Of a DNA stretch of 11,799 nucleotides, positions 88 to 11,757 are shown in pieces. Below the pieces are notes generated by a model. That model was not told where the DNA came from and searched no databases. It saw only the letters and a list, made by a program, of their open reading frames with translations. A program made the position numbers and the translations under genes. Every line of letters starts with the position of its first letter. Position 1 is the stretch's first letter. Source of the DNA: a virus; the UHGV virus genome UHGV-0101678; one strand, 5' to 3'.

Positions 88-100
88 CAATGACCCTTGA
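88..100. repeat. 13-bp direct repeat, copy 1 (caatgacccttga); copy 2 at 11745-11757
   Basis: Exact 13-mer read at both positions. A single exact 13-mer pair is expected about once by chance in a window this size, so significance is weak. Left copy lies in AT-rich DNA; right copy lies at the compositional boundary. Confidence 0.3.
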
Positions 101-155
101 ATGAAGTCTATTCGGTTTTCTAAGAGACCTGTTAATTACAGGACAATATCAGGTG

Positions 156-180
156 TAGTTGGGCTTGTTCCAACCCCTAT
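156..180. repeat. 25-bp direct repeat, copy 1 (tagttgggcttgttccaacccctat); copy 2 at 3235-3259
   Basis: 24/25 identity with the copy at 3235-3259 (single t/a difference). Contains an internal 5-bp inverted repeat gttgg / ccaac. Far too long to be a chance match. Confidence 0.7.
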
Positions 181-350
181 GACTATGCAATTTAATAGTA
201 GTTTTCCAAGTATCTAAGCAGTTTCACACAGATTCTATGCAGTATCGGTATAGTCTCTTTTTACCCTAACTCATTGAAATATATAAAGAATCTGTGAAGT
301 CTCTTTTCAGGGTAAACTGTATCGTGTTAGTCGTCCCTCTCCAGACACTA

Positions 351-390
351 CATATAGTGCTATATACAGGGCTATATAACGATATATAGA
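351..390. repeat. AT-rich reiterated motif, three copies of (g)ctatata / gatatata at about one helical turn spacing
   Basis: Read directly: catatagtgCTATATAcagggCTATATAacGATATATAga, copies starting near 359, 371 and 381. Iteron-like or protein-binding array; function unknown. Confidence 0.35.
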
Positions 391-501
391 TGTTTGGTCA
401 CCATACGTTACAGTTGCAAGAGATAACAATCAGCTATGTGAAAGTTAGGAAGTGATGGTTATAGTTACCCTCCTAAAATCTTCATAGCTCCTTCATAACC
501 A

Positions 502-624
502 GTCTTAAAAGGACTTCCTTTTGAGACACTTTCAACGTAACGGTAGAATGCACCCTCAAGGAGTCTTAAAAGGTTGTTTTTGGATTATGAGACAGCTAAA
601 CTTATGAGACTAACTTTTGAGACT
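502..624. promoter_or_regulatory. res/hix-like recombinase binding-site cluster and probable autoregulated promoter region upstream of the serine recombinase gene
   Basis: 26-bp imperfect palindrome at 502-527 (gtcttaaaagga-ct-tccttttgagac, arms 11/12 complementary). Second site 563-593 pairs gtcttaaaa with ttatgagac across a 13-bp spacer. Two further direct half-sites ttatgagac (602-610) and ttttgagac (616-624) sit just before the RBS and ATG at 639. The reverse complement TGTCTCATAA resembles the Tn3 resolvase half-site TGTCTGATAA as I recall it. Confidence 0.5.
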
Positions 625-638
625 TCTAAGGGGGATGT

Positions 639-1187
639 ATGGCGGTGATTGGTTATTGCAGGGTATCAACACAAGACCAGACTGTAGACAACCAGAAACT
701 ACAGATAGAGAAGGTTCACAAGGTCGATAAATGGTTTATTGATGAGGCTGTCTCAGGAGCTACAAAGGCCACCAGCAGAGATGGTTTTAGAGACATGATG
801 AACTATGTAAGGTGTGACGATACGTTAGTTGTGGTAGCTATTGACCGTTTAGGGCGTAATACCGTTGATGTGCTCTCTAACGTTGAGTCACTACAGACTA
901 AAGGTGTGAGAGTTGTTTCTTTACGTGAAGGTTTTGACCTGTCTACACCAATCGGTAAAGCAATGCTTACTATGATGGCTGGTTTAGCTGACCTTGAAAA
1001 AGACCTTATCAGTGAGCGTAGAAAAGCTGGTATTGAACGTGCTAAAGCTGAAGGGGTTCACATGGGAAGACCCGTAAAAGCTTCTTCAGAGACTGTAAAG
1101 ACGCTTATTTCACAAGGTAAAACGAGGTTGCAGATTCAGGAAGAGCTAGGAATCTCTAGAGCAACTTATTACAGACTTGCTAAATAA
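639..1187 (+). CDS. small serine recombinase, resolvase/invertase family (Hin/Gin/TnpR-like), 182 aa
   Basis: N-terminus MAVIGYCRVSTQDQ matches the catalytic-serine motif (compare Hin MATIGYIRVSTIDQ). AIDRLGRN motif present. C-terminal GRPVKASSETVKTLISQGKTRLQIQEELGISRATYYRL is a resolvase-type HTH. RBS aaggggg lies 4-5 nt upstream. Confidence 0.9.
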   Translation: MAVIGYCRVSTQDQTVDNQKLQIEKVHKVDKWFIDEAVSGATKATSRDGFRDMMNYVRCDDTLVVVAIDRLGRNTVDVLSNVESLQTKGVRVVSLREGFDLSTPIGKAMLTMMAGLADLEKDLISERRKAGIERAKAEGVHMGRPVKASSETVKTLISQGKTRLQIQEELGISRATYYRLAK

Positions 1188-1367
1188 GTTACTGAATAGT
1201 TACATGGATGTGACTGATATTTGGCTTTTTTGCAAAGGGGGTCACATAGCTGGTGTGACGGGTACTTAGCAGCTACAGATTGATTGCAGATATTTTCGAA
1301 GATTATCGGGGAAGGGAAATGTAGAGGGGCTAGTCATTTTTTATAAAAAATTTAGAGGCTGGATATT

Positions 1368-1405
1368 ACCTGTATAGATTTTAACCAGTATAGAAGCCTG
1401 TATAA
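1368..1405. repeat. three direct copies of cc(t/a)gtata(g/a) in the recombinase-methyltransferase intergenic region
   Basis: cctgtatag (1368-1376), ccagtatag (1385-1393), cctgtataa (1397-1405). Lies directly upstream of a small RBS-preceded ORF pair. Possible operator or iteron. Confidence 0.3.
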
Positions 1406-1871
1406 CATGAGGGGTTCCTATGGTCACTATATCCCTCTTTCCCACTAAGGAAGCCTTAGCAGCACCTAGGCAACTATTGACTAAGGTCAACTTCATAAAC
1501 TCAGAGTTAAGTTACCTTGAAAGATTCTACCAAGAAACTACACAGGTATTATTTAGTCTGACTGTGAAGAGATGTTTAACGGGAGGAAGAGAACCATGAA
1601 ACCGAAGGTAGGTTCTATCTTAACAGTGACCGTAAGAAGAGAACTTGAGAGACAACTAAACAAACCTCTTAAGTAAAAGACAACACTCCAGAAAGAGTGT
1701 CTGTTTAACAGGCTTCTCAAAAGCTCTTAAGAAATCTGTTAAGTAGGGTCATGTGAACAATCTTACCATTTTGTCAAGTGTTTTGTCTTTGACCTAAATC
1801 AATAAAATGTATCGTTTGATATGCTTTTAAACAAAATAGCTAAAAAATCTTTTTAGAGGGGCGCTTCGCTT

Positions 1872-2540
1872 GTGTCACATCCAATAATCAATGTCGGTCG
1901 TTATCATGGTGGTTCTGATGACTGGCGTACACCGTATCGTTTATTTCGTAACCTACACCGTGAATTTGGTTTTTCGATGGATGGTGCTGCAACTGAGCAT
2001 GACACGCTGTTACCACGGTTCACCGATGATATTCACAATCAATCGTGGATTGGTGAACGGGTCTTCGTTAACCCGCCGTTTAGCATGGCTGAGCAGTTCC
2101 TCCTAAAAGCCCCTGAAGCTGATGTGTGTGTATGTCTGGTTCCGCACAGGTCAAAGACAACTTACTGGCTTCGGTGTGTATATACAAACCCCTTTCTGCA
2201 TGAGATTCGAACGTTACACCGAGCAGTCAAATACCTTCCACCAGCAGGGAAGAAAGGTGTTGCAGCGCGTTCACCGTTTCCAAGTTGCGTTTTGATATAC
2301 AGGAACACACCCCGCAAACCGAAAGTTGAAGTTACCCAGACAATCTATTGTGGCGACACAATGCTTTTACTTGCCGTGGTTAACAGGGGTGGTTTACGTG
2401 GAAGACCCACCATTTACCCACCTGAGACGCTCGACAGCTTCATAAAGCTATACAGGCAAGGAAAACCCATTAAGTACATTGCAGATGCTCTCAGAATGCC
2501 TCTGAGCACGTCATACAGAATTGCTCAAAGGTTGAGCTAA
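1872..2540 (+). CDS. Dam-family (phage-type) DNA N6-adenine methyltransferase fused to a C-terminal resolvase-type HTH domain, 222 aa; GTG start uncertain
   Basis: Motifs DWRTP, FSMDGAAT, VFVNPPF (NPPF catalytic motif), PHRSKTTYW, HEIRT and SPFPSCV match the phage Dam N6-adenine methyltransferase family. The C-terminal roughly 50 aa (GRPTIYPPETLDSFIKLYRQGKPIKYIADALRMPLSTSYRIAQRL) resembles the HTH of serine recombinases. Putative RBS agagggg 10 nt upstream of GTG. Confidence 0.8.
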   Translation: MSHPIINVGRYHGGSDDWRTPYRLFRNLHREFGFSMDGAATEHDTLLPRFTDDIHNQSWIGERVFVNPPFSMAEQFLLKAPEADVCVCLVPHRSKTTYWLRCVYTNPFLHEIRTLHRAVKYLPPAGKKGVAARSPFPSCVLIYRNTPRKPKVEVTQTIYCGDTMLLLAVVNRGGLRGRPTIYPPETLDSFIKLYRQGKPIKYIADALRMPLSTSYRIAQRLS

Positions 2541-2580
2541 AATTCTCATATAGAGCACTGATTATGAGAATGTTAAAGAG

Positions 2581-2613
2581 GCGATTTCCCCTGTCTGGGG
2601 TTATTCGCTTTTT
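2581..2613 (+). terminator. rho-independent terminator-like hairpin downstream of the methyltransferase gene
   Basis: gcga-ttt-cccc-tgtct-gggg-ttat-tcgc followed by ttttt. A diverged second copy of the same roughly 40-bp element is at about 2744-2783. Confidence 0.45.
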
Positions 2614-3002
2614 ACTGGAAGGGTTATTTTACAGAGGTTTTTCAAACCCCCTCAATAATAGAAACGAGCAACAAACGAAGAGCGAGAAATAAAATATTGA
2701 GACTGGTGAACGGGGTCTGTAAAGATTGTTTAAGAAGTCGGTTAAGAAGGTGGCTCTCCCTTTCTGGGGTTATCGCCTTGTATCTTAGTGAGTCCAGGAA
2801 GTTCTCTGTGAAGAGTCTTGTCAGTCCTTTATATTGGCTAATTACAACTTATTGAAAAATAAGAACTTTTAGAAATTACTGTCAGAGAGGTGAATACTTG
2901 ATAGATACAGCTTTCCGGTTCTGTCAAGCTATTTTTTAATAGATAGCACAAAATGCTAAAGATGCCCCTATACCATCACGTACAGGGGGTTTTGAAGGGA
3001 GT

Positions 3003-3179
3003 TTAACGGGGTTCTGTGTGGTCATTATCCTTAAGGTCAAGCGTCCATGTACGACCGAACAATCGGAACACAACAAGCACTCTGACGAGGACGTAGCGAA
3101 GTAGCAGGCCTGCAAGCAGTCCAACACCTCCACCAGTCCATACATCAGGTGACCCCAGTTCAGGAGGGAGATTTACCAT
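3003..3179 (-). CDS. candidate small hydrophobic protein (58 aa, one predicted transmembrane helix); speculative
   Basis: Minus-strand ORF with ATG at 3179 preceded by AGGA about 8 nt upstream. Product MVNLPPELGSPDVWTGGGVGLLAGLLLRYVLVRVLVVFRLFGRTW... has a Gly/Leu/Val-rich membrane-helix-like segment. Could be a chance ORF over a locally GC-richer patch. Confidence 0.25.
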   Translation of the reverse strand: MVNLPPELGSPDVWTGGGVGLLAGLLLRYVLVRVLVVFRLFGRTWTLDLKDNDHTEPR

Positions 3180-3234
3180 TAAATTTCCTGTGTGCAATGC
3201 AATACCATGTGACCAAATACATAGTTGATTCGGT

Positions 3235-3259
3235 TAGTTGGGCTTGTACCAACCCCTAT
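3235..3259. repeat. 25-bp direct repeat, copy 2 (tagttgggcttgtaccaacccctat)
   Basis: 24/25 identical to 156-180. Flanked by a short inverted repeat attcg (3228-3232) / cgaat (3260-3264). Upstream attcggtt also occurs at 110-117 near copy 1. Confidence 0.7.
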
Positions 3260-3346
3260 CGAATAAACCTCATAGCCACGCCTTTATATTTTCCCTCTCT
3301 CATAAAACCATTATACCACAGATGTTAATGAAATGTTAAAAAATGC

Positions 3347-3375
3347 TTGACATTAGTCTTTGAAACTGCTAAGAT
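3347..3375 (+). promoter_or_regulatory. sigma70-like promoter for the small-gene operon
   Basis: -35 ttgaca (3347-3352), 17-bp spacer, -10 taagat (3370-3375); followed by RBS gaggg and ATG at 3427. Confidence 0.4.
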
Positions 3376-3426
3376 TGTATATATGAGTTAACAGAATAAT
3401 AACATCTTATGAGGGTCAGAATATGA

Positions 3427-3981
3427 ATGAGAGACGCAGAATTTAGAGCGATGCTTCAGGCATCAAGAGAACGCAACAAGCACAACTCCTACGCTTACAC
3501 AGACACCCCCACCAGCCACGAAGTACCCAAGTTCACCAGAGCAGAACGCAAAGGCATTGACGAAGTAATTCGGGCAATTACACCGAGGAGTCGTTATATG
3601 CCAACCAGAAAGAGCACGAAGAACACTATTAAAAATTATCTGGCTAACTTTGATTCTTACGAGCAACTACCATCAAAAATTGAAGATTTAATTATCGGAT
3701 TTTGCAGAAGTGAAGGTCACCCGAAATACAACAAAAAACTATTTTATATTCTAAAGAATCTTGATGAAATTAACGCAGCCAGCGTGACAAATTATCTTCA
3801 AAGACAAGCAACCAGACTTAGCTACGAATTACCAAGCGATAAATATTGTGCATTGCTTGCTGTAATGTGTGCAAAGCTGATTGGTATTGTTGAACATCAT
3901 ATTGCCGTTGGGAATATTGAGCCAATGGAAAACGAGCAACCAGACTTTGAGTTTGACCCGTATATTTTGGAGGAATTTTAA
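3427..3981 (+). CDS. hypothetical protein, 184 aa, first gene of operon
   Basis: Long ORF with RBS (gaggg) and upstream promoter-like element. No motif recognised by eye. Confidence 0.6.
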   Translation: MRDAEFRAMLQASRERNKHNSYAYTDTPTSHEVPKFTRAERKGIDEVIRAITPRSRYMPTRKSTKNTIKNYLANFDSYEQLPSKIEDLIIGFCRSEGHPKYNKKLFYILKNLDEINAASVTNYLQRQATRLSYELPSDKYCALLAVMCAKLIGIVEHHIAVGNIEPMENEQPDFEFDPYILEEF

Positions 3982-3982
3982 A

Positions 3983-4264
3983 ATGAAAACCAGACACACA
4001 CTAACCAGAGTTACAAAGACAGCCTTTGAAGAACTTAACAAAATTAAGAAGGTTACAGGTCTTTCACATGCAGCAGTGATGAAGCTTGCAATTAACCGTG
4101 ATATTAACGAGCAGGATTTGCTTAATAGTCGCTTAGAGGCAGCAAGACACCATATCCGGATTAAGAAAGATGACCTTGATAGTCTGAAATCTTTAAATGC
4201 TTTTGGACTGGATTTAGCAAGGTTGCTAAGCATCAAAATTAACAAGCTATCTCAAGAGGTCTGA
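3983..4264 (+). CDS. ribbon-helix-helix (CopG/Arc-like) DNA-binding protein, 93 aa
   Basis: Start moved to ATG 3983 (RBS ggagg 3971-3975; the previous gene stops at 3981). N-terminal TLTRVTKTAFEELNKIKKVTGLSHAAVMKLAIN follows the beta-alpha-alpha pattern of CopG-type RHH proteins. The track start at 3881 would overlap the upstream gene. Confidence 0.55.
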   Translation: MKTRHTLTRVTKTAFEELNKIKKVTGLSHAAVMKLAINRDINEQDLLNSRLEAARHHIRIKKDDLDSLKSLNAFGLDLARLLSIKINKLSQEV

Positions 4265-4266
4265 CT

Positions 4267-4539
4267 ATGAAGCAATGGCGAGATGATATTAAACGGTTCT
4301 TTGCAACTTACTTCATGATTAATTACGAAACAGGAATGCTTGAATGGATTGATGGTGGAGAGGTTAAGACAAGAGATGACGCTTACGGTAATCCAATGAT
4401 TCGTTATGGCACTCGTGATTATTATGTGAAATATGTCATCTGGTTTTTGCATCATGAAGTTCAGGCAACTAAAAAGATTATCTTCAGGGATGGTAATAAA
4501 AGAAATTGCCACCCAAACAATTTACTACTGGAGATTTAA
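4267..4539 (+). CDS. HNH_3-like protein, 90 aa, with degenerate catalytic motif (likely inactive or domesticated HNH)
   Basis: C-terminal DYYVKYVIWFLHHEV...IIFRDGNKRNCHPNNLLLEI parallels the phage HNH_3 signature (YYxHRLxW...DHIDGNxxNNxxxNL), but HRL is replaced by KYV and DHIDG by FRDG. RBS agagg upstream; 2-nt gap from the preceding gene. Confidence 0.55.
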   Translation: MKQWRDDIKRFFATYFMINYETGMLEWIDGGEVKTRDDAYGNPMIRYGTRDYYVKYVIWFLHHEVQATKKIIFRDGNKRNCHPNNLLLEI

Positions 4540-4739
4540 TGTTATGTATTAAATTCGAATATTTGACAGATAAAATGATTAAGCATGTATCAGACCTGCT
4601 CATCAAAGAAGGTGGTTTCGGTGATGCTTGCAATCCAAAAGATATCTTCATTCATGCCACCAGCCCAAACGCAACACTAAAGACAGCAGTTACAGCGGAA
4701 TGGTTTGAACGAAATAAAGCGGAATTAGGTTATTGGTAG
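4539..4739 (+). CDS. hypothetical small protein, 66 aa (translationally coupled)
   Basis: ATG at 4539 overlaps the upstream stop (TAATG) with ggag 5 nt upstream. The track ORF start at 4506 lies inside the upstream gene. Confidence 0.45.
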   Translation: MLCIKFEYLTDKMIKHVSDLLIKEGGFGDACNPKDIFIHATSPNATLKTAVTAEWFERNKAELGYW

Positions 4740-4918
4740 TCCGAGACTTTAAGAGAAATTAGAAAAACAGCTTCTCAGACGCTCTCAATCGCATTCTAAC
4801 GCAAAAAACTACCTTATTTTAGGGTGGGTAATACCACTGTGCAGGCTACCCCTGAAAAAGACTGTTTAGCTCGTTACAGAGCGATTGAGGAGGTCTGGTA
4901 AAAAGGAGATTTTAAGAA

Positions 4919-5242
4919 ATGAATAATTACGAATTACAGATTTTCGTTGATAGCGACACCACCATGATGATTCAGGCTTTCACTGATGCAGATATTATCA
5001 TTGACTTTGATAAGTTGTTAGAGTTAATGGCTGATAATGCGGAAAGCATCTCTGACTTTATTCAGTCGGTGGAGTTTAACGAGCCTCGAATGATGCTACC
5101 AATTACAGACTCAAACATGAAAAGATTGGTTATCGAGCAAACGAACAAATACAGTATTTCCCCAGAGCAATTTTTGAAAGGTGCTGTGACAATCCTGTAC
5201 AGCGATAATATTCTGGTGACGGATTCTGTGAGGGTTCACTAA
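4919..5242 (+). CDS. hypothetical acidic protein, 107 aa
   Basis: ORF with RBS aaggag about 10 nt upstream of ATG. No recognisable motif. Confidence 0.5.
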   Translation: MNNYELQIFVDSDTTMMIQAFTDADIIIDFDKLLELMADNAESISDFIQSVEFNEPRMMLPITDSNMKRLVIEQTNKYSISPEQFLKGAVTILYSDNILVTDSVRVH

Positions 5243-5342
5243 TGATGTTAATTGTATTGTGGACACTGCTAGGGGTATTTGTTGGCTGCATTATTAACAA
5301 TGCGGTAAATAAGAATTGATGTTACCAATCTGTTAAAAGCTG

Positions 5343-5371
5343 TTGACAAATAACCTTGAGCATGACATAAT
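5343..5371 (+). promoter_or_regulatory. near-consensus sigma70 promoter driving a non-coding region
   Basis: -35 ttgaca (5343-5348), 17-bp spacer, -10 cataat (5366-5371), then tgtatatat. No convincing RBS-preceded ORF follows for about 400 bp. Confidence 0.45.
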
Positions 5372-5542
5372 TGTATATATAGGGAGAGCAATTCTCTCTT
5401 ATTTTTCTTTCAATAATCCGATGGATAGATATTCTGAGTTGGAAAGGTGCAATGCTTTTCGCTACATGGCCTTTCAGGTTGGTCTGAGAGGTCATCTCGA
5501 AAAGTCTTTGTTCATTCATTCGTTTGAATCCTTTACAGCTTT

Positions 5543-5570
5543 GCCCTAATCATGATTAGGGCTTTCTTTA
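5543..5570 (+). terminator. perfect 20-bp palindrome followed by a T-rich tract (terminator-like; alternatively a dimeric protein operator)
   Basis: gccctaatcatgattagggc (5543-5562) is exactly self-complementary, followed by tttcttta. Confidence 0.35.
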
Positions 5571-5769
5571 AGAGTTTTTAAACAGACTTTTAAAGAAAGT
5601 TTTCCTGAAACTTCGTTAACGTTATAAGCAAACCTTCAAAGCCCTTCACAGATTATGTTTAGGGCTTTTCTTAATAGAGCATCTTTAATAAATCGTTAAG
5701 TCATCTTCTAAGTGTATTGGCGTTGAAGGTGCTCTATTAAGAAATAACCACACTTAGAGGAAAATTATA

Positions 5770-6480
5770 ATGACAAACGATTTATATATTAACGGTAGAA
5801 AGGTTGATAGCTTCGGTGACTGGTCGCCACAGACTGAACATCCAGCTATCGCTATTCAGCGTAAAGAACACGATGAAAGAATTAAGCTTGAGCAATCGCT
5901 AAAGATGTCACCAAAAACAACCATCTTTGTGTATCCTGAACCTCAGGAGATGCCTGATGTTTGCAAAACTGAATCATTACTTGAGCTTGAAAAGAAATAT
6001 TACCCACTGCTAAAAGCACAGCGTATTAAGCTTGATATTGCTTACGACAATGTGAAGAACTTTGAAGAGACTGAGAAGCCAACTGATTTTGATATTGAAG
6101 TGAAAATTAGACAAAACCCATTCGTATATTACTCAGTTGAGGATAATGATGGTTTTGGTACAGCAAGAGAGAATATCTCAAAAGTTCTTCAAAACATCCC
6201 TGAAGGATTCCGTTTAATTGATGTTAGACCAGCTTCACGCGGTACAGGTTCATATATTTTACTGTCTGATAAAACAGATGAAGAGATTTGTCAGTTAGCT
6301 GAAAAGAATCTACTTGAGCGTCATAGCAAAAAGTTAAACAGATTTAAGCAAGAACTTGCTAACCAGCTTCAGGCTATGAAAGAGCTTGTGAAAGAATATG
6401 AAGATGCTAAGAAGGTTGCTATGCAGGCCGATATTGAGCAGCTTACGAAGATTTCTCAGAAATATGCAAAGGCTATTTGA
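5770..6480 (+). CDS. hypothetical protein, 236 aa, with C-terminal coiled-coil-like segment; first gene of the tail-like block
   Basis: ORF with RBS agagg about 9 nt upstream. C-terminus rich in heptad-like K/E/L/A residues. Position relative to the tape-measure gene suggests a structural or assembly role, unproven. Confidence 0.6.
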   Translation: MTNDLYINGRKVDSFGDWSPQTEHPAIAIQRKEHDERIKLEQSLKMSPKTTIFVYPEPQEMPDVCKTESLLELEKKYYPLLKAQRIKLDIAYDNVKNFEETEKPTDFDIEVKIRQNPFVYYSVEDNDGFGTARENISKVLQNIPEGFRLIDVRPASRGTGSYILLSDKTDEEICQLAEKNLLERHSKKLNRFKQELANQLQAMKELVKEYEDAKKVAMQADIEQLTKISQKYAKAI

Positions 6481-6488
6481 GGTGATTA

Positions 6489-6797
6489 ATGAATGATTTA
6501 ACAGAACGCGATGAAGCAACTAAATTTTTAATTGAGCATTTTGAAGGTAAATTACAGGGGATTCGAACGACTCTTGATGATATACAGACATACAGTGAAT
6601 ATATCATTGCCAGTTTGAAGGAAAAAACTCTTGATGAGCTAAAGTATATGGGGCGAGATGACTTAACAGTTTCCCTTATCGACCTCAAAGACAAAGTAGC
6701 TGCGCTCGATAAAGAGTATTATGAGACCTTTCTTTCACTTCGTTACGAAATTGTAAAGAACGAACGCGGTGTAGAGTGCCTTCGCTTCTTAGATTAA
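6489..6797 (+). CDS. hypothetical small protein, 102 aa
   Basis: ATG 6489 with RBS gaggtga. N-terminus MNDLTERDE is paralogous to the next ORF. Confidence 0.55.
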   Translation: MNDLTERDEATKFLIEHFEGKLQGIRTTLDDIQTYSEYIIASLKEKTLDELKYMGRDDLTVSLIDLKDKVAALDKEYYETFLSLRYEIVKNERGVECLRFLD

Positions 6798-6823
6798 AAT
6801 CGAATTAAAAAAGGTGGTGGTGA

Positions 6824-7027
6824 ATGATTGATTTAACAGAACGCTATGAACTTATTAAAGCAATTAGCGAACGATTGAAAGAACAACCCAACAAACCAAA
6901 ACGAATCAAAGCATCACCTCTAAAACAAAATGACAGAATCAGAAGAATCGCTAAGTGGTGTCTTGATAAATTACCAAGTGATTGTCAGATTGTCGGTGAA
7001 GATGGTAATTATTATCTGGTTAGGTAA
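6824..7027 (+). CDS. hypothetical small basic protein, 67 aa; N-terminal paralogue of the preceding ORF
   Basis: ATG 6824 with RBS aaggtggtgg. The first 27 nt of the coding sequence are nearly identical to 6489-6515 (MIDLTERYE versus MNDLTERDE). Confidence 0.5.
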   Translation: MIDLTERYELIKAISERLKEQPNKPKRIKASPLKQNDRIRRIAKWCLDKLPSDCQIVGEDGNYYLVR

Positions 7028-7053
7028 CAAGAATTGGTTGGGTGAAAATCTAC

Positions 7054-7093
7054 GGGAGAGATTATCGAGTGACATCGGTAACTCTCCTTTTTT
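7054..7093 (+). terminator. hairpin plus T6 tract between the small ORFs and the tape-measure gene (attenuator or terminator candidate)
   Basis: gggagag (7054-7060) pairs with ctctcc (7082-7087) around a 21-nt loop, followed by tttttt (7088-7093). Confidence 0.4.
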
Positions 7094-7123
7094 GTATATG
7101 AACACTTAAGAGGTGAAACATGA

Positions 7124-9172
7124 ATGAGCAAATTCACAGTTGATAGTTTTATCGTTGAGCTAAGCTTCAATGAAAACGTTGTTAAGGGCTTGCAAAGAGT
7201 TGAAAAGGCAGCTTTGCAGTCAGCACAAAGAATTGAACGTAATTTGAATAGAGCGTTTAAGGTCGATACCAAGCAACTTGACAGCAATCTGACAAGTTCT
7301 TTAGGGCAACTTGAAAGGAAGTTTAATAAGACCTTTGACAAGATTGAGCAGCGTCTTAAAAACACTAGAGCGTTTAAGATTAAAACGGAAATTGAGGATA
7401 CTTTAAAGCCACTTAGACAGCCAAGACAGCCACGAATTAGCGGCAACAGAGCAATCACAGCAGCTTATTCAGCGAATATGTCTAAGCTAAAAGGTCTTAA
7501 CCCAATTGTCGAGAAATACATTAAGAGTCAGTTTTATGGGCTAGCTAGTAAAGCTGGTCAGATGGATAACACCAAGTTTAATGAAGCCCTTGCTAAACTA
7601 AATTCAAGTGTAAGAGAAGCAATCACTAAAGCCAGAGGTCATACATCCACCAGCATTAATGGTGACAGAGCAGCTAGCAGCCTTGATAACCTGTCTTCGG
7701 CAGCAGTCAAAACAGCAGGTGCATTTATCTCAATGCAGGCTGTATTAGCCAGTTATCAGAAGATTATGGAAGTTGGTTTACAGCGTGCAAGTGCTGAACG
7801 TTCAATTGATTTCGTATTTGATAAAGATGCAGGTCAGGTAAAAGAGTTCACAAAGTCATTAGCTCAAACAACGGGTTTAGATATCGCTGAACTGCAATCA
7901 CAGTTTGCTGGTTTTGGTGCTTCAGCTAAAGAATCTATGGGTATTCAAGGTTCTGAAGAACTTTTTAAAAATATGATTGGCTATGCTCGTCTGATGGGGA
8001 GAAGTGAAGAAGAGATTAAGCGAGCACTGACAGCATTATCACAGATGGCTGGTAAGGGTCAGATTATGGCTGAAGAGCTTAAGGGGCAACTGGCTGAAGC
8101 TGTTCCTGGTATGGTGCAGGTGTTCGCTAAAGCAACCGGAAAGAGTGAACAGGAATTATTTGATGCCATGAAGAAGGGGGCTTTAAAATCTGCCGATACT
8201 CTTCAGAAGGTCACTCAGGAACTGAATAAACAAATCACCGCTAAAGGTGGCTGGAAAGCCATTTCAGAAAGTACTCAGGCACAACTAGGGAACCTGAAAA
8301 ACTCTTGGAATACCACGCTTGATAGTATCTTCAGAGGTTCTGAAAATGGTCTTCAAGATTTCACAAGAAGCCTAACAACGCTTTTAAACGCTCTTGGTGG
8401 AAGTGGTAAAAGTCTTGGTGAATCTCTTGGTAGCTTGATGACTGATATGTCACATGGTGTCGATTCATTGACTGATATTTCTTACAAGGTGAGAGGTTTC
8501 TTTGATGAGGTGACATTGGCTTATCGTGGTTTAACCGATGAACAAAAGAAAGTTGTTGATGCTTTAGGTTCTGGCTTGATTAATAGTTTAAAAGTCTTGG
8601 CTGGTGTTATTGCTGTGAATAAAGTTGTTGGTGTAACCAGAAGTATTTACGGGCTTATGACTGCTATCACAAGATTAGGTCAGGTCGCTGATACTACAGC
8701 GGATAACGTGAATAGAAAGAACGGGAAACCATCAAGGTTTAATCTTGGGAATATGCTATTAGCTGGTAGTGCTATCTATGCAGGTTATGAGAGATTAGCT
8801 TCTACGCCTGAACGAATGGAAGCACAAGCTAAATTACCAGAGCTGGCTAAAGAGTCTGGACTTAAGCCAGTATTTACTATGGACGATGTGAAAGGTTGGT
8901 TTAATAGTGCAGCTATGAATCTTGCTAACTTCCAGCATCCAGAATTAATCACCATGAGACAAGATGCGGCATTAACGAATACGGATATCCAAAGCCTGAG
9001 AGATGAAATTAGTGCTTTGAGCAAACGTATTCAGGAGCCTGTGAAAGTTTCACTTGGTGGTGAAGTTGCCATTAAACCAGATGAAACCAGCTTTATGACC
9101 TTTAGCAGTAATATCTACGACCAATATGCAGAAGCTACGCTATTAAGTTCATCATTCCCAGAAGATGATTAA
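7124..9172 (+). CDS. tail tape-measure-domain protein, 682 aa
   Basis: Central segment GYARLMGRSEEEIKRALTALSQMAGKGQIMAEELKGQLAEAVPGMVQVFAKATGKSEQELFDAMKKGALKSADTLQKV matches the conserved tape-measure core motif (PG-containing helix pair). Overall the protein is long, helical and low-complexity as tape measures typically are. RBS agaggtg 8 nt upstream. Confidence 0.75.
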   Translation: MSKFTVDSFIVELSFNENVVKGLQRVEKAALQSAQRIERNLNRAFKVDTKQLDSNLTSSLGQLERKFNKTFDKIEQRLKNTRAFKIKTEIEDTLKPLRQPRQPRISGNRAITAAYSANMSKLKGLNPIVEKYIKSQFYGLASKAGQMDNTKFNEALAKLNSSVREAITKARGHTSTSINGDRAASSLDNLSSAAVKTAGAFISMQAVLASYQKIMEVGLQRASAERSIDFVFDKDAGQVKEFTKSLAQTTGLDIAELQSQFAGFGASAKESMGIQGSEELFKNMIGYARLMGRSEEEIKRALTALSQMAGKGQIMAEELKGQLAEAVPGMVQVFAKATGKSEQELFDAMKKGALKSADTLQKVTQELNKQITAKGGWKAISESTQAQLGNLKNSWNTTLDSIFRGSENGLQDFTRSLTTLLNALGGSGKSLGESLGSLMTDMSHGVDSLTDISYKVRGFFDEVTLAYRGLTDEQKKVVDALGSGLINSLKVLAGVIAVNKVVGVTRSIYGLMTAITRLGQVADTTADNVNRKNGKPSRFNLGNMLLAGSAIYAGYERLASTPERMEAQAKLPELAKESGLKPVFTMDDVKGWFNSAAMNLANFQHPELITMRQDAALTNTDIQSLRDEISALSKRIQEPVKVSLGGEVAIKPDETSFMTFSSNIYDQYAEATLLSSSFPEDD

Positions 9173-9329
9173 TAATAGTCGAATGCTACGTGAATAAAGC
9201 AAAGTTAATACCCACACTAAAAATTATTTTTTACGTAGCTCACGCTTAACAGAGAAAACACTTATATATCAAAGGCTTGGTTAAAAATGATTAAAACACA
9301 CTAAGCCTTTGAAATCAAAGGAGAATTTA

Positions 9330-10103
9330 ATGATTTTTAGCAATCAAATCCGCTACAGTGGCAAAGATGGCGTTTACTTCCACTTAAGAGATAATGTAGA
9401 TGCCTTCTTAACCTTATCAGCAACTGAAAACATGGAATTTGACAGCCCTATGCAGGTGACTACACAGAACATGCAATCAGGGCAAACCGTCACAGATAAT
9501 GTGCAAAGAGCACCCAGAACAATCACTATTAGTGGTGTCGTCGTAGTTGGCTATGAAGGAAGCTTATTATTAACTCGTCAAGGCCAATTAGTAGAAAACT
9601 TCATTGACACTCTTGAAAGCTGGCGTGACCAGAAGCAGATTATTTCGGTCATCTGTAAAGATGGTATCAAGATTGATGACTCCATTATTACGAGTTTTAA
9701 AGCCTCTAAAGATGTTGGTATTTCAAATGGTCTAAGAATCCAGCTAACTTTTCAGGAAATCAACTTTAAGGCTATTGTAGGGCAAACTGATATTTCAGCA
9801 GCCACTGGCAAAACGGCTACCACAAATGATGGTGGCGCTACCAGCAAAAAGAATGCGGGTAACGTGACTACTGAACGCAATAACGCACCTATGCTGATGT
9901 GTCAGGAACTGTACAGTTACTCAGCGTCTGAGCTATCTGATGAAGCATTAAAAGCCCGTAGTAATTGCTCTAAAAATGTCACGGTGAAAGATGGTGTAAG
10001 CACCTTCACAGACTCAGCTAATTCAGGTGCTGCAAAGGTACTCAAGTCGGGTAATGCTTTACGGAAGTTTTCTGTGAATCCGAACAAGAAGGGCACTTAT
10101 TGA
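9330..10103 (+). CDS. hypothetical protein, 257 aa; candidate distal-tail-type protein by position only
   Basis: Start set at ATG 9330 (RBS aaggag 7 nt upstream) rather than the track TTG at 9309. Lies immediately downstream of the tape-measure gene. No motif recognised. Confidence 0.6.
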
Positions 10104-10108
10104 GACAT

Positions 10109-10130
10109 AAAAAGGGGCTTCATAGCCCCT
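10109..10130 (-). terminator. rho-independent terminator for the integrase gene (hairpin between convergent genes)
   Basis: aggggct-tcat-agcccct perfect 7-bp stem (10113-10130). On the minus strand it is followed by TTTT(A), and it sits 6 nt beyond the integrase stop. Confidence 0.5.
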
Positions 10131-10135
10131 GATTG

Positions 10136-11656
10136 CTACAGTTGATAAGCGTCTATTTCTAGTAGCTCTTTTTCAGCAATTTCAAAGATAGATGTTCCAT
10201 CATTTAGAGGTAGCGGGTCTGTAGGAACAATTATTTCAGTGTCGTTCTGTAGCGTTACAGTTACCGAATCCTTACCCAATGTAAGCCCTTTTAGATGCTT
10301 GGACAAAATCAACTGACACTCGACACGACCCGCTTTAGTCATAAGGTCAATATCTTTAAGCTGGGGTAGTTCCTTATCAGTGAGTGAAGCCTTACGCCTC
10401 ATGTTATCAATCATGGTCTGTAGTTCTGTGCGCTTCTGGTTCAGTTCCTTAAGCTGAATTTTTAGTTCATCAATATCATCCATCTCAAGAAGTAGGGCGG
10501 TAGCTTTCTTGATTCTGGCTGTGACAATTTCAACCTCATGCTGTAGAGATGCAATCTTCCCCTCTGCTTCTCCATCATTCCCCACGTCAATCATCCCCAG
10601 AAAATTATCAATCATCCACTTATCAAACGGTTTACGCTTCAACGGTGGAACATCACAGCGACCGTCTAAGTGGTTATTGCACCTGTAGACCCCAGCATAC
10701 TTATTCTTAGTCCCTGTAGGGTGAACACTAGCCCCACACTGACACCGGAATAATCCCTTGAAGATGTTAATCGTTAATGGGTTATCACTTGCAGGTGTGC
10801 GACCTTTACGATTTTTATCGAGGATTTCTTGAGCTTTATTGAACGTTGAAGCATCTATAGCGGCTTCGTAGTAGTTCGGTATAGCGGGGCGGTCATTGCG
10901 CTGTGATGCTGGTAGTGTACCTCTCGTTGTCTCTGACCTTAAGATAGTACGCACAGAATGAACGCTAAAACCATTAGCATCTTTACGCCGTGAGAATGAA
11001 CTAATGTTATTAGCCTGTAGGTGACGGGCGATGTTATGCAGACTTTCACCATCTAGCAGCAGCTTGAAAATCAGTCTTACAGTCTCAGCGTGTTCATTGC
11101 ACTTGAAAGTATCGGGGTCAATCCATCCGGGAACCATCTTTGTAAGACGTTGTTCACCAGCAAGGGCAAGCTTTGCACGTTGTTTCCACTTCTGGCTAAC
11201 ACGGAAAGACTTCTGCTTAGACTCTTGATGAGCTACGTAGCTTTTAACGCGCTGGATGATTGAGATTCCTAAATCATCGGATAGAGCATCCCTTGTGTAG
11301 ATTAGCCCATCCTGTAGAGTGTGAATCTCGATACCATGAGCAATAATGCGATTCATCAAGGCTTCTGTTTCAAGATGTTCAAGGCGGCCTATGCGGTCGA
11401 TAGCTTCGACTAACAGAAGTGTACCTTCTGGAAACTCCCCAGACTCAATACGGGCTAACATGTCACCAAACTGACCAGTAAGATGCTTACCTTTGTAACC
11501 ACTCAACCCTTCATCACTGAAAGACGCTACTACTTGAGCATCGCTATTCTTCTTCAACCATTGCTTGAACAGGTCATTTTGTCGTCTGGTTGAATCTGCA
11601 CCTTCAGCGCCTTGTATGGCTGATGAGAATCTCAAGTATGTTATTACACTTCTCAT
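10136..11656 (-). CDS. large serine recombinase (integrase), 506 aa
   Basis: N-terminal catalytic domain (ITYLRFSSAIQ, EAIDRIGR), recombinase domain, a Cys-rich zinc ribbon (FRCQCGASVHPTG...YRCNNHLDGRC) and a C-terminal coiled coil give the typical large-serine-integrase architecture. Confidence 0.92.
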   Translation of the reverse strand: MRSVITYLRFSSAIQGAEGADSTRRQNDLFKQWLKKNSDAQVVASFSDEGLSGYKGKHLTGQFGDMLARIESGEFPEGTLLLVEAIDRIGRLEHLETEALMNRIIAHGIEIHTLQDGLIYTRDALSDDLGISIIQRVKSYVAHQESKQKSFRVSQKWKQRAKLALAGEQRLTKMVPGWIDPDTFKCNEHAETVRLIFKLLLDGESLHNIARHLQANNISSFSRRKDANGFSVHSVRTILRSETTRGTLPASQRNDRPAIPNYYEAAIDASTFNKAQEILDKNRKGRTPASDNPLTINIFKGLFRCQCGASVHPTGTKNKYAGVYRCNNHLDGRCDVPPLKRKPFDKWMIDNFLGMIDVGNDGEAEGKIASLQHEVEIVTARIKKATALLLEMDDIDELKIQLKELNQKRTELQTMIDNMRRKASLTDKELPQLKDIDLMTKAGRVECQLILSKHLKGLTLGKDSVTVTLQNDTEIIVPTDPLPLNDGTSIFEIAEKELLEIDAYQL

Positions 11657-11744
11657 GGTGATAAACTCTCATGCAATTGATTATCATTTAAAGATGAACT
11701 TATAAACGTTATGGCTAATGCTACAATGCCGAATAGCTACAATA

Positions 11745-11757
11745 CAATGACCCTTGA
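11745..11757. repeat. 13-bp direct repeat, copy 2 (caatgacccttga), at the compositional boundary next to the integrase gene
   Basis: Exact match to 88-100. Immediately followed by GC-rich sequence (11758-11799, about 60% G+C by count), unlike the rest of the window. Confidence 0.3.

Follow-up and report, generated by a model that had tools for sequence, protein, structure and literature searches.

A conserved, structured RNA region with a probable control role upstream of the tail genes of a satellite-like island of Escherichia coli

In phage lambda, the constitutive promoter PR' produces a terminated RNA of about 190 nucleotides (nt), the 6S RNA, which ends at tR' before the late genes, and antitermination by Q leads to read-through into these genes. 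The CI RNA of phage P4 and the C4 RNA of phages P1 and P7 are made from the leader of the operon that they control, at a constitutive promoter, and block downstream expression; 5'-untranslated region (5'-UTR) operators that sequester the Shine-Dalgarno (SD) sequence form another general class of control elements. Here we describe a region at positions 5,243 to 5,769 of the UHGV virus genome UHGV-0101678, which was analysed as one strand of 11,799 nt (hereafter the window) and which holds a satellite-like island with tail genes directly downstream of the region. A further system to which the region can be compared is SviR, a small RNA (sRNA) of the Vibrio cholerae satellite PLE, which has a large serine recombinase and lives as a parasite of a lytic myovirus (bioRxiv 10.1101/2022.04.08.487710). 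According to the same preprint, SviR is encoded in an intergenic region free of open reading frames (ORFs) with inverted repeats on its flanks, is expressed from one promoter with a dominant species of about 210 nt that ends at an intrinsic terminator, is most conserved in its promoter, seed and terminator, and is induced by helper infection, with targets that were mapped experimentally.

By in-silico evidence, the region is a genuine RNA control region in front of the tail genes of the island, conserved and never annotated, and not a replication origin. The original prediction, which was made from the letters of the window alone, had left the choice between a regulatory RNA and an iteron-type origin. 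Its first half is supported in silico, because the promoter is conserved, no ORF is conserved, helices covary on the plus strand and a terminator is present; its second half is not supported, because iterons, a DnaA box and a Rep protein were not found. Compensatory base pairs in the helices SL-E, I2 and I1 and in an anti-SD/SD pairing, combined with the lack of a conserved reading frame, mark the predicted product as a structured non-coding RNA. We consider it probable, although by no means certain, that the RNA from the promoter P2 is attenuated at two terminators, T1 and T2, and that the late genes are gated both by termination and by masking of a ribosome-binding site. According to this leader model, P2 would transcribe a modular, highly structured RNA, and most transcripts would stop at T1 (~5569) or at the backup T2 (~5675), leaving a stable species of some 190 nt in which a hairpin at the 5' end is followed by the invariant core, by SL-E, by a linker rich in A and U, and by the terminator itself. 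This RNA would also be the leader of a late operon (a 236-amino-acid (aa) gene, two small paralogues, a tape-measure gene and a Dit-like gene), which would be transcribed only when RNA polymerase reads through both T1 and T2; read-through is suggested by the absence of a sigma-70 match belonging to the operon itself and by a conserved UTR that begins inside T2. In the read-through RNA, an anti-SD sequence atop I1 would mask the ribosome-binding site of the gene that heads the late operon, and some factor, presumably tied to infection by a helper phage, would lift both blocks. The sequence elements, the way in which they are conserved and covary, and the asymmetry of the strands are observations; the transcription start, the efficiency of termination, read-through as the source of late mRNA and the relieving factor are what we infer in this model.

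Compared by description only, the island RNA resembles SviR in being intergenic and flanked by inverted repeats, in belonging to an element with a large serine recombinase, in the parts that are most conserved, in having its own promoter and an intrinsic terminator, and in its size of about 200 nt (predicted from 5378 to ~5569). SviR is induced by the helper, however, whereas P2 looks constitutive by its near-consensus sigma-70 sequence, and the targets of SviR are mapped, whereas target predictions for the island RNA are not significant; moreover, the island RNA lies directly upstream of the late-operon leader and is structurally interlocked with it. The arrangement at lambda PR' is similar in its constitutive-type promoter, its short terminated RNA and the late genes downstream, but neither a Q-family protein (Pfam, PHROG; among the island proteins scanned) nor a Q-binding element was recognised, and the island leader is far more structured and has the anti-SD/SD translational block in addition. 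Like the CI and C4 RNAs, it is a regulatory RNA of a phage or satellite that would arise at a constitutive promoter, within the leader of the operon under its control, and keep downstream genes from being expressed; it differs from them in that paired internal targets for the exposed loop are absent (A/U-rich matches of 8-14 nt occur only at chance level) and in that its termination would be intrinsic rather than Rho-dependent. The suggested analogy with P4-type immunity RNA does not hold as family membership, since there is no C4 or CI match (Rfam, E ≤ 1) and there are no sites of the seqA/seqC type. Like the SD-sequestering operators, the island has a conserved upstream anti-SD that pairs with the SD of the first gene; unlike in these, the anti-SD is placed near the tip of a long stem (20-27 bp), so that the fold would resemble a pseudoknot. 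The mechanisms proposed for the island (a terminator-limited leader or sRNA, and SD sequestration) are of known kinds, the RNA is outside Rfam, and the island is apparently undescribed.

Homologues of the region were collected in four sets, which together yielded 97 distinct sequences. The first set consisted of 14 RefSeq copies obtained via BLAST, and the second of two copies from other Escherichia species (L030 from E. albertii and L091 from Escherichia sp.), which were the only relevant matches in a scan of a genome collection with a 17-nt promoter pattern that is too short and returned mostly chance matches. The third set comprised 87 loci from viral and metagenome collections that were retrieved using the promoter sequence, and the fourth comprised six copies (Citrobacter, Salmonella and sequencing-run assemblies) that were reached through the downstream protein. 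Because the set retrieved with the promoter is circular with respect to it, conclusions on the promoter are limited to the BLAST-derived and the protein-anchored sets. Homologues of the region are present in 477 of 5,426 complete E. coli genomes (~9%) with 75-94% identity, annotated in none of them, and also occur in Salmonella, Citrobacter, E. albertii and gut metagenomes.

The promoter P2 (5343-5371, plus strand) has the sequence TTGACA-17-CATAAT that was originally predicted, with 11 of 12 positions matched. It has an extended -10 (TG), is the best plus-strand promoter match of the window and has a predicted transcription start at ~5378; judged by its sequence, it is probably a strong, constitutive sigma-70 promoter. 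The -35 and the spacer are identical in 13 of the 14 RefSeq homologues, the 14th of which retains the -35, as do all six loci reached through the downstream protein. On the plus strand between T2 and position 5770, no sigma-70 promoter match was found. P2 is preceded by the upstream element TGTTA-N6-TGTTAAAA (5320-5338, plus strand), which is conserved in the homologues and occurs twice in the window (3323-3341 and 5320-5338), with a chance expectation of 0.01. The two copies directly precede the two strong plus-strand promoters, P1 and P2, and could be UP elements or sites for a regulator. The early-operon promoter P1 (3347-3375) shares its initial transcribed sequence TGTATATAT with P2, and a strong divergent promoter match, TTAACA-18-TATAAT with TG, is located on the minus strand at 3339-3310. 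An antisense promoter candidate at 5792-5764 was rejected by sequence inspection because its -10 varies among the variants.

The length of about 190 nt and the start near 5378 that had been guessed for the transcript fit the predicted distance of ~192 nt from the start to an intrinsic terminator. RNA 5378-5572 folds with -62.6 kcal/mol (z = -5.2) and RNA 5378-5790 with -135.7 kcal/mol (z = -9.6), and in neither case did a shuffled sequence fold as well. The minus strand of the longer stretch reaches -101.6 kcal/mol; the plus strand folds better because of G-U pairs in its RNA helices. In a covariance analysis, which had been named as a check, five helices were found to keep their pairing through compensatory changes. 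No family of Rfam 15 was matched in a scan of the whole window (E ≤ 1).

All elements of the leader RNA lie on the plus strand. It would begin with the 5'-terminal stem-loop SL1 (GGGAGAG/CUCUCU; 5381-5399), whose stems measure 5-8 bp in 16 sequence variants and which presumably stabilises the 5' end; a role of SL1 as an early terminator was rejected because the U-run that follows it is not conserved. A variable linker with a (GAUG)n repeat (5400-5445) follows, in which indels are not multiples of three and some relatives have optional extra hairpins. Next is a near-invariant core of 16 nt, GGUGCAAUGCUUUUCG (5446-5461), of which GUGCAAUGC shows no variation across the 67 distinct core sequences or in Citrobacter; the core is a candidate seed or protein-binding site. 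The long hairpin SL-E (5455-5504) has a lower stem (5455-5461/5498-5504), an upper stem (5466-5477/5484-5495) and a variable apical loop, and its fold is the same in all 28 sequence variants. In a model-guided alignment of 67 distinct sequences, SL-E is paired in 95.2% of the cells versus 33-53% in slid controls, and two-sided changes were found at six pairs in 44 cells versus 0-1 in slid controls; values as high as these were not obtained in any of 500 shuffles. The independently found Citrobacter copy differs in the sequence of the lower stem, which nevertheless stays complementary. An alternative hairpin, GAAAGGU/GCUUUUC, can be paired in 99.8% but was rejected, as its changes are one-sided only and in Citrobacter it is weaker; that it might alternate with the lower stem of SL-E is speculative.

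Between SL-E and T1 lies a single-stranded A/U-rich linker (5505-5542) with an (AUUC)n repeat, the copy number of which ranges from one to about five among homologues. The leader as a whole is modular, with optional hairpin insertions and with modules that are shuffled between islands. No co-evolution was detected between the loop type of SL-E and the type of the UTR or of the downstream gene, and association drops with distance. In the DNA, the tetranucleotide repeats (GATG)n at 5419-5430 and (ATTC)n at 5511-5522 vary among islands from one to about five copies.

The perfect 20-bp palindrome of the original prediction (5543-5562) is present and is followed by TTTCTTT, but exact palindromy is not a conserved property: it is perfect in only 4 of the 61 copies of T1, and a hairpin with a U-run is kept in all 61. 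T1 (5543-5569, plus strand) has an 8-bp stem, GCCCUAAU/AUUAGGGC, followed by UUUCUUU, is present in 61 of the 97 homologues, and is predicted from its sequence to form the 3' end of the ~190-nt RNA. The second hairpin that had been noticed, AAAGCCCT...AGGGCTTT (5638-5650/5656-5668), is also real and belongs to the terminator-like T2 (5638-5675, plus strand), a diverged duplicate of T1 in which AAAGCCCU/AGGGCUUU is followed by UUUUCUU. The direct repeat TAGGGCTTT, likewise verified, lies within a 48-nt duplication (5527-5574 and 5630-5677, 71% identical), and the hairpins of T1 and T2 (GCCCT/AGGGC) are therefore duplicates of each other. Both would qualify as intrinsic (Rho-independent) terminators by their GC-rich hairpin and U-run on the transcribed strand. 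Every complete homologue has at least one hairpin with a U-run between P2 and the next gene, and one Salmonella copy contains a fusion of T1 and T2. Because the symmetry is lost while pairing and U-run are kept, and because folding of the plus strand is favoured, the palindromes appear to act as RNA hairpins and not as DNA sites.

Downstream of each terminator, a further plus-strand helix makes use of its U-tract. The I2 hairpin (5562-5599) occurs in 13 variants with compensatory exchanges (UUUAAG/CUUUUAAA versus UUCAAG/CUUUGAAG); the U-tract of T1 supplies the 5' arm of I2, which would thus be confined to RNA extended beyond T1. The 13-bp inverted repeat at 5669-5681 and 5730-5742 that had been reported before extends to arms of 22 nt that are 91% complementary. 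It forms the long 5'-UTR hairpin I1 (5667-5744, arms 5667-5688/5723-5744), the 5' arm of which starts within the U-tract of T2, and each of its four arm-sequence types has a stem of 20-27 bp. Since I2 and I1 use the terminator U-tracts as 5' arms and covary, the RNA downstream of the terminators is under selection. The apical part of I1 contains the anti-SD sequence UCUUCUAAGUGU (5704-5715, plus strand), which is complementary to the SD region ACACUUAGAGGA (5750-5761) in front of the start codon (5770) of the 236-aa gene (5750-5772 in all, plus strand). Of 59 distinct UTRs, nearly all allow contiguous pairing of the two over 9-13 bp (mean 11.3 bp versus 7.6 ± 1.4 bp in shuffled sequences), and the two covary over four sequence types.

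Several points weigh against the leader model. The transcription start, the RNA ends and the read-through are all predictions, and the alignment used for covariation was fitted to the structural model and hence biased toward structure. The conservation of the promoter is circular in most of the metagenome homologues; the unbiased loci are only the 14 RefSeq and the six protein-anchored ones. The function of the invariant core is unexplained by the model, neither an antiterminator gene nor a known antitermination signal was recognised in the island, and a helper-specific late promoter of unrecognised consensus could overlap T1-T2.

It is less probable, although a serious possibility, that P2-T1 is a free-standing gene for a trans-acting sRNA that is directed against mRNAs of the island or the helper, and that the downstream hairpins are a separate UTR of the late operon; this would be compatible with the leader model, as one RNA could hold both roles. 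The layout, with a strong promoter of its own, a 5' hairpin, an A/U-rich linker and a GC-rich terminator hairpin with a U tail, is typical of enterobacterial sRNAs, and SviR (~210 nt, intergenic, ending at an intrinsic terminator) is a precedent (bioRxiv 10.1101/2022.04.08.487710). An invariant single-stranded core combined with variable apical loops might be expected of such an RNA, but the loop type of SL-E is not associated with any type of downstream module. In ~30% of the linker/start-region pairs tested, versus 0.25% for shuffled linkers, 9-11 nt of the (AUUC)n linker could base-pair with the beginning of the 102-aa or the 67-aa gene; however, this complementarity shows no covariation, permuted island pairs score equally, duplex scores against all start regions of the island remain at |z| < 2.4, and exact complementarity of at least 9 nt within the island is at chance level.

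None of the candidate targets has statistical support. Fourteen nucleotides of the core, GTGCAATGCTTTTC (5447-5460), are identical to positions 53441-53454 of the Felixounavirus LTH02 (PP430346.1; 8441-8454 of our sequence L223), which would make the core antisense to a 69-aa phage gene. The match may be due to chance, since its BLAST E value is 0.12, and 14 nt, the longest complementarity, was equalled or exceeded (at least 14 nt) in 10 of 30 shuffles. After a small gap, GCCTTTCA is also identical, and the site lies inside the 69-aa gene, on the minus strand beside the DNA polymerase gene. We regard it as unlikely, but worth stating, that the RNA is the infection-sensing switch of an undescribed satellite family that parasitises Felixounaviruses, and/or that its short form, which would be abundant, serves as an antisense weapon directed at a helper gene adjacent to that of the DNA polymerase. 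As a switch, it would be engaged at the core or SL-E by a helper protein or RNA, with read-through and an unmasked ribosome site of the tape-measure/Dit operon as the outcome.

An element that acts at the DNA level, be it an origin of replication of the iteron type, a site for packaging or, at the palindromes, an operator for an island protein, is very improbable. Inverted repeats are dense in the region, which is mildly AT-rich (35% GC), but its GC content is like that of the neighbouring windows, no family of direct repeats reaches three copies (only a weak tandem repeat of 12 nt x 2.3 was found), and a DnaA box was not found in the region. The element TGTTA-N6-TGTTAAAA in front of P1 and P2 could bind a protein, though this would be for the control of the promoters. 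A Rep protein, primase or helicase was not recognised in the island by searches of Pfam, NCBIfam and PHROGs, which left several proteins without an assigned function, and no DNA match to the region was found by blastn among 50,697 phage records. The RNA hairpin with its U-run is conserved and perfect palindromy is not, and the strand asymmetry of folding depends on G-U pairs, both of which speak against a DNA site.

ToxIN systems consist of a promoter, a structured RNA, a terminator and a protein gene, and the gene order at the present locus recalls this layout. A module of the type III toxin-antitoxin kind, with an RNA antitoxin, a leaky terminator and the 236-aa protein as toxin, nevertheless has an even smaller chance of being correct, as tandem RNA repeats of ~34-36 nt are absent (the weak 12-nt repeat is the only one), the 236-aa protein has no match in PADLOC, Pfam, NCBIfam or PHROG and a helical model without a fold match, and its gene heads an operon of tail genes. 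Least credible of all is a small protein encoded between the promoter and T1, for although a 42-aa ORF (ATG 5422) or 68-aa ORF (TTG 5343) is open up to 5549, within the T1 stem, there is no SD sequence before ATG 5422, the frame is broken in relatives by an indel of 2 nt and by in-frame stops, and the maximal length of an ATG ORF within the leader varies from 5 to 57 aa over the 97 homologues.

No ORF is conserved between P2 and T1. The original statement that all 527 bp are non-coding was not confirmed, as the first 77 bp belong to the gene of a 25-aa hydrophobic peptide, MMLIVLWTLLGVFVGCIINNAVNKN (5242-5319, plus strand). Its ORF is present in all 94 homologues with enough upstream sequence and in Citrobacter, and it is not annotated in RefSeq. 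The ATG overlaps the stop codon of the upstream 107-aa gene (TAATG), which indicates translational coupling. The gene is the last of the early operon, and its conserved product is a single-helix hydrophobic peptide of the membrane type, with two families of 25 aa and 21 aa (the 21-aa allele is MELVIICFVLIGMIAGASIKV).

The island of ~11.7 kb (window about 100-11,757) is located between yciI and tonB of E. coli. When its two ends are joined, they correspond to an uninterrupted 142-bp stretch of the tonB region as found in records without the island, and annotated genomes contain related islands at the same chromosomal place. E. coli E24377A also has a related island. On the plus strand, genes for a small serine recombinase and a Dam-type methyltransferase are followed by an operon of small proteins of unknown function that includes an HNH protein, and then by the leader region, the 236-aa protein, two small paralogous proteins, the tape-measure protein and the Dit-like tail protein; a large serine recombinase is encoded on the minus strand at the right end. 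The leader region thus occupies the boundary between the early and late parts of the island. The Dit-like gene has a DNA identity of 92-95% to the lytic Felix O1-like phages, and the tape-measure protein has a protein identity of only 29% to its counterpart in phage LTH02. The island contains no capsid or terminase genes, and terminal overlaps, which would indicate circularity, were found in none of 28 metagenome contigs. A description of the island was not found in the literature searched, which did not cover all journals.

The gene of the 236-aa protein (5770-6480) is the first of the tail-gene operon. The protein also has no sequence match in the PDB, and its AlphaFold model, in which long helices predominate (predicted local distance difference test score, pLDDT, 70), gave no significant match with Foldseek; the RefSeq family name "transposase" was rejected because domain, sequence and fold searches do not support it. 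Other islands have divergent alleles of the 236-aa protein (24% identity) at the same position. In the two small paralogues, the 102-aa and 67-aa genes, the start regions (6481-6524 and 6816-6859) share 82% identity (GGTG..ATGA.TGATTTAACAGAACGC), and the N-termini of the two proteins are therefore paralogous. The small recombinase/Dam module is flanked by a 25-bp direct repeat with 96% identity, TAGTTGGGCTTGT[T/A]CCAACCCCTAT (156-180 and 3235-3259), which could be a recombination site or the sign of a composite element; related elements elsewhere on chromosomes begin at about 179-183. A second long stretch without annotated genes (2541-3426, ~880 bp) contains a 33-nt repeat (2572-2604 and 2741-2773, 76% identical) and unannotated minus-strand ORFs of 64-69 aa.

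Together with the anti-SD/SD pair and the invariant core, the two terminators make up a compact set of targets for mutation. The island as a whole could be an undescribed satellite or a tail-interference element. Should it turn out to be a satellite or to serve in defence against Felixounaviruses, the leader would be the likeliest point at which the expression of its tail genes is decided.

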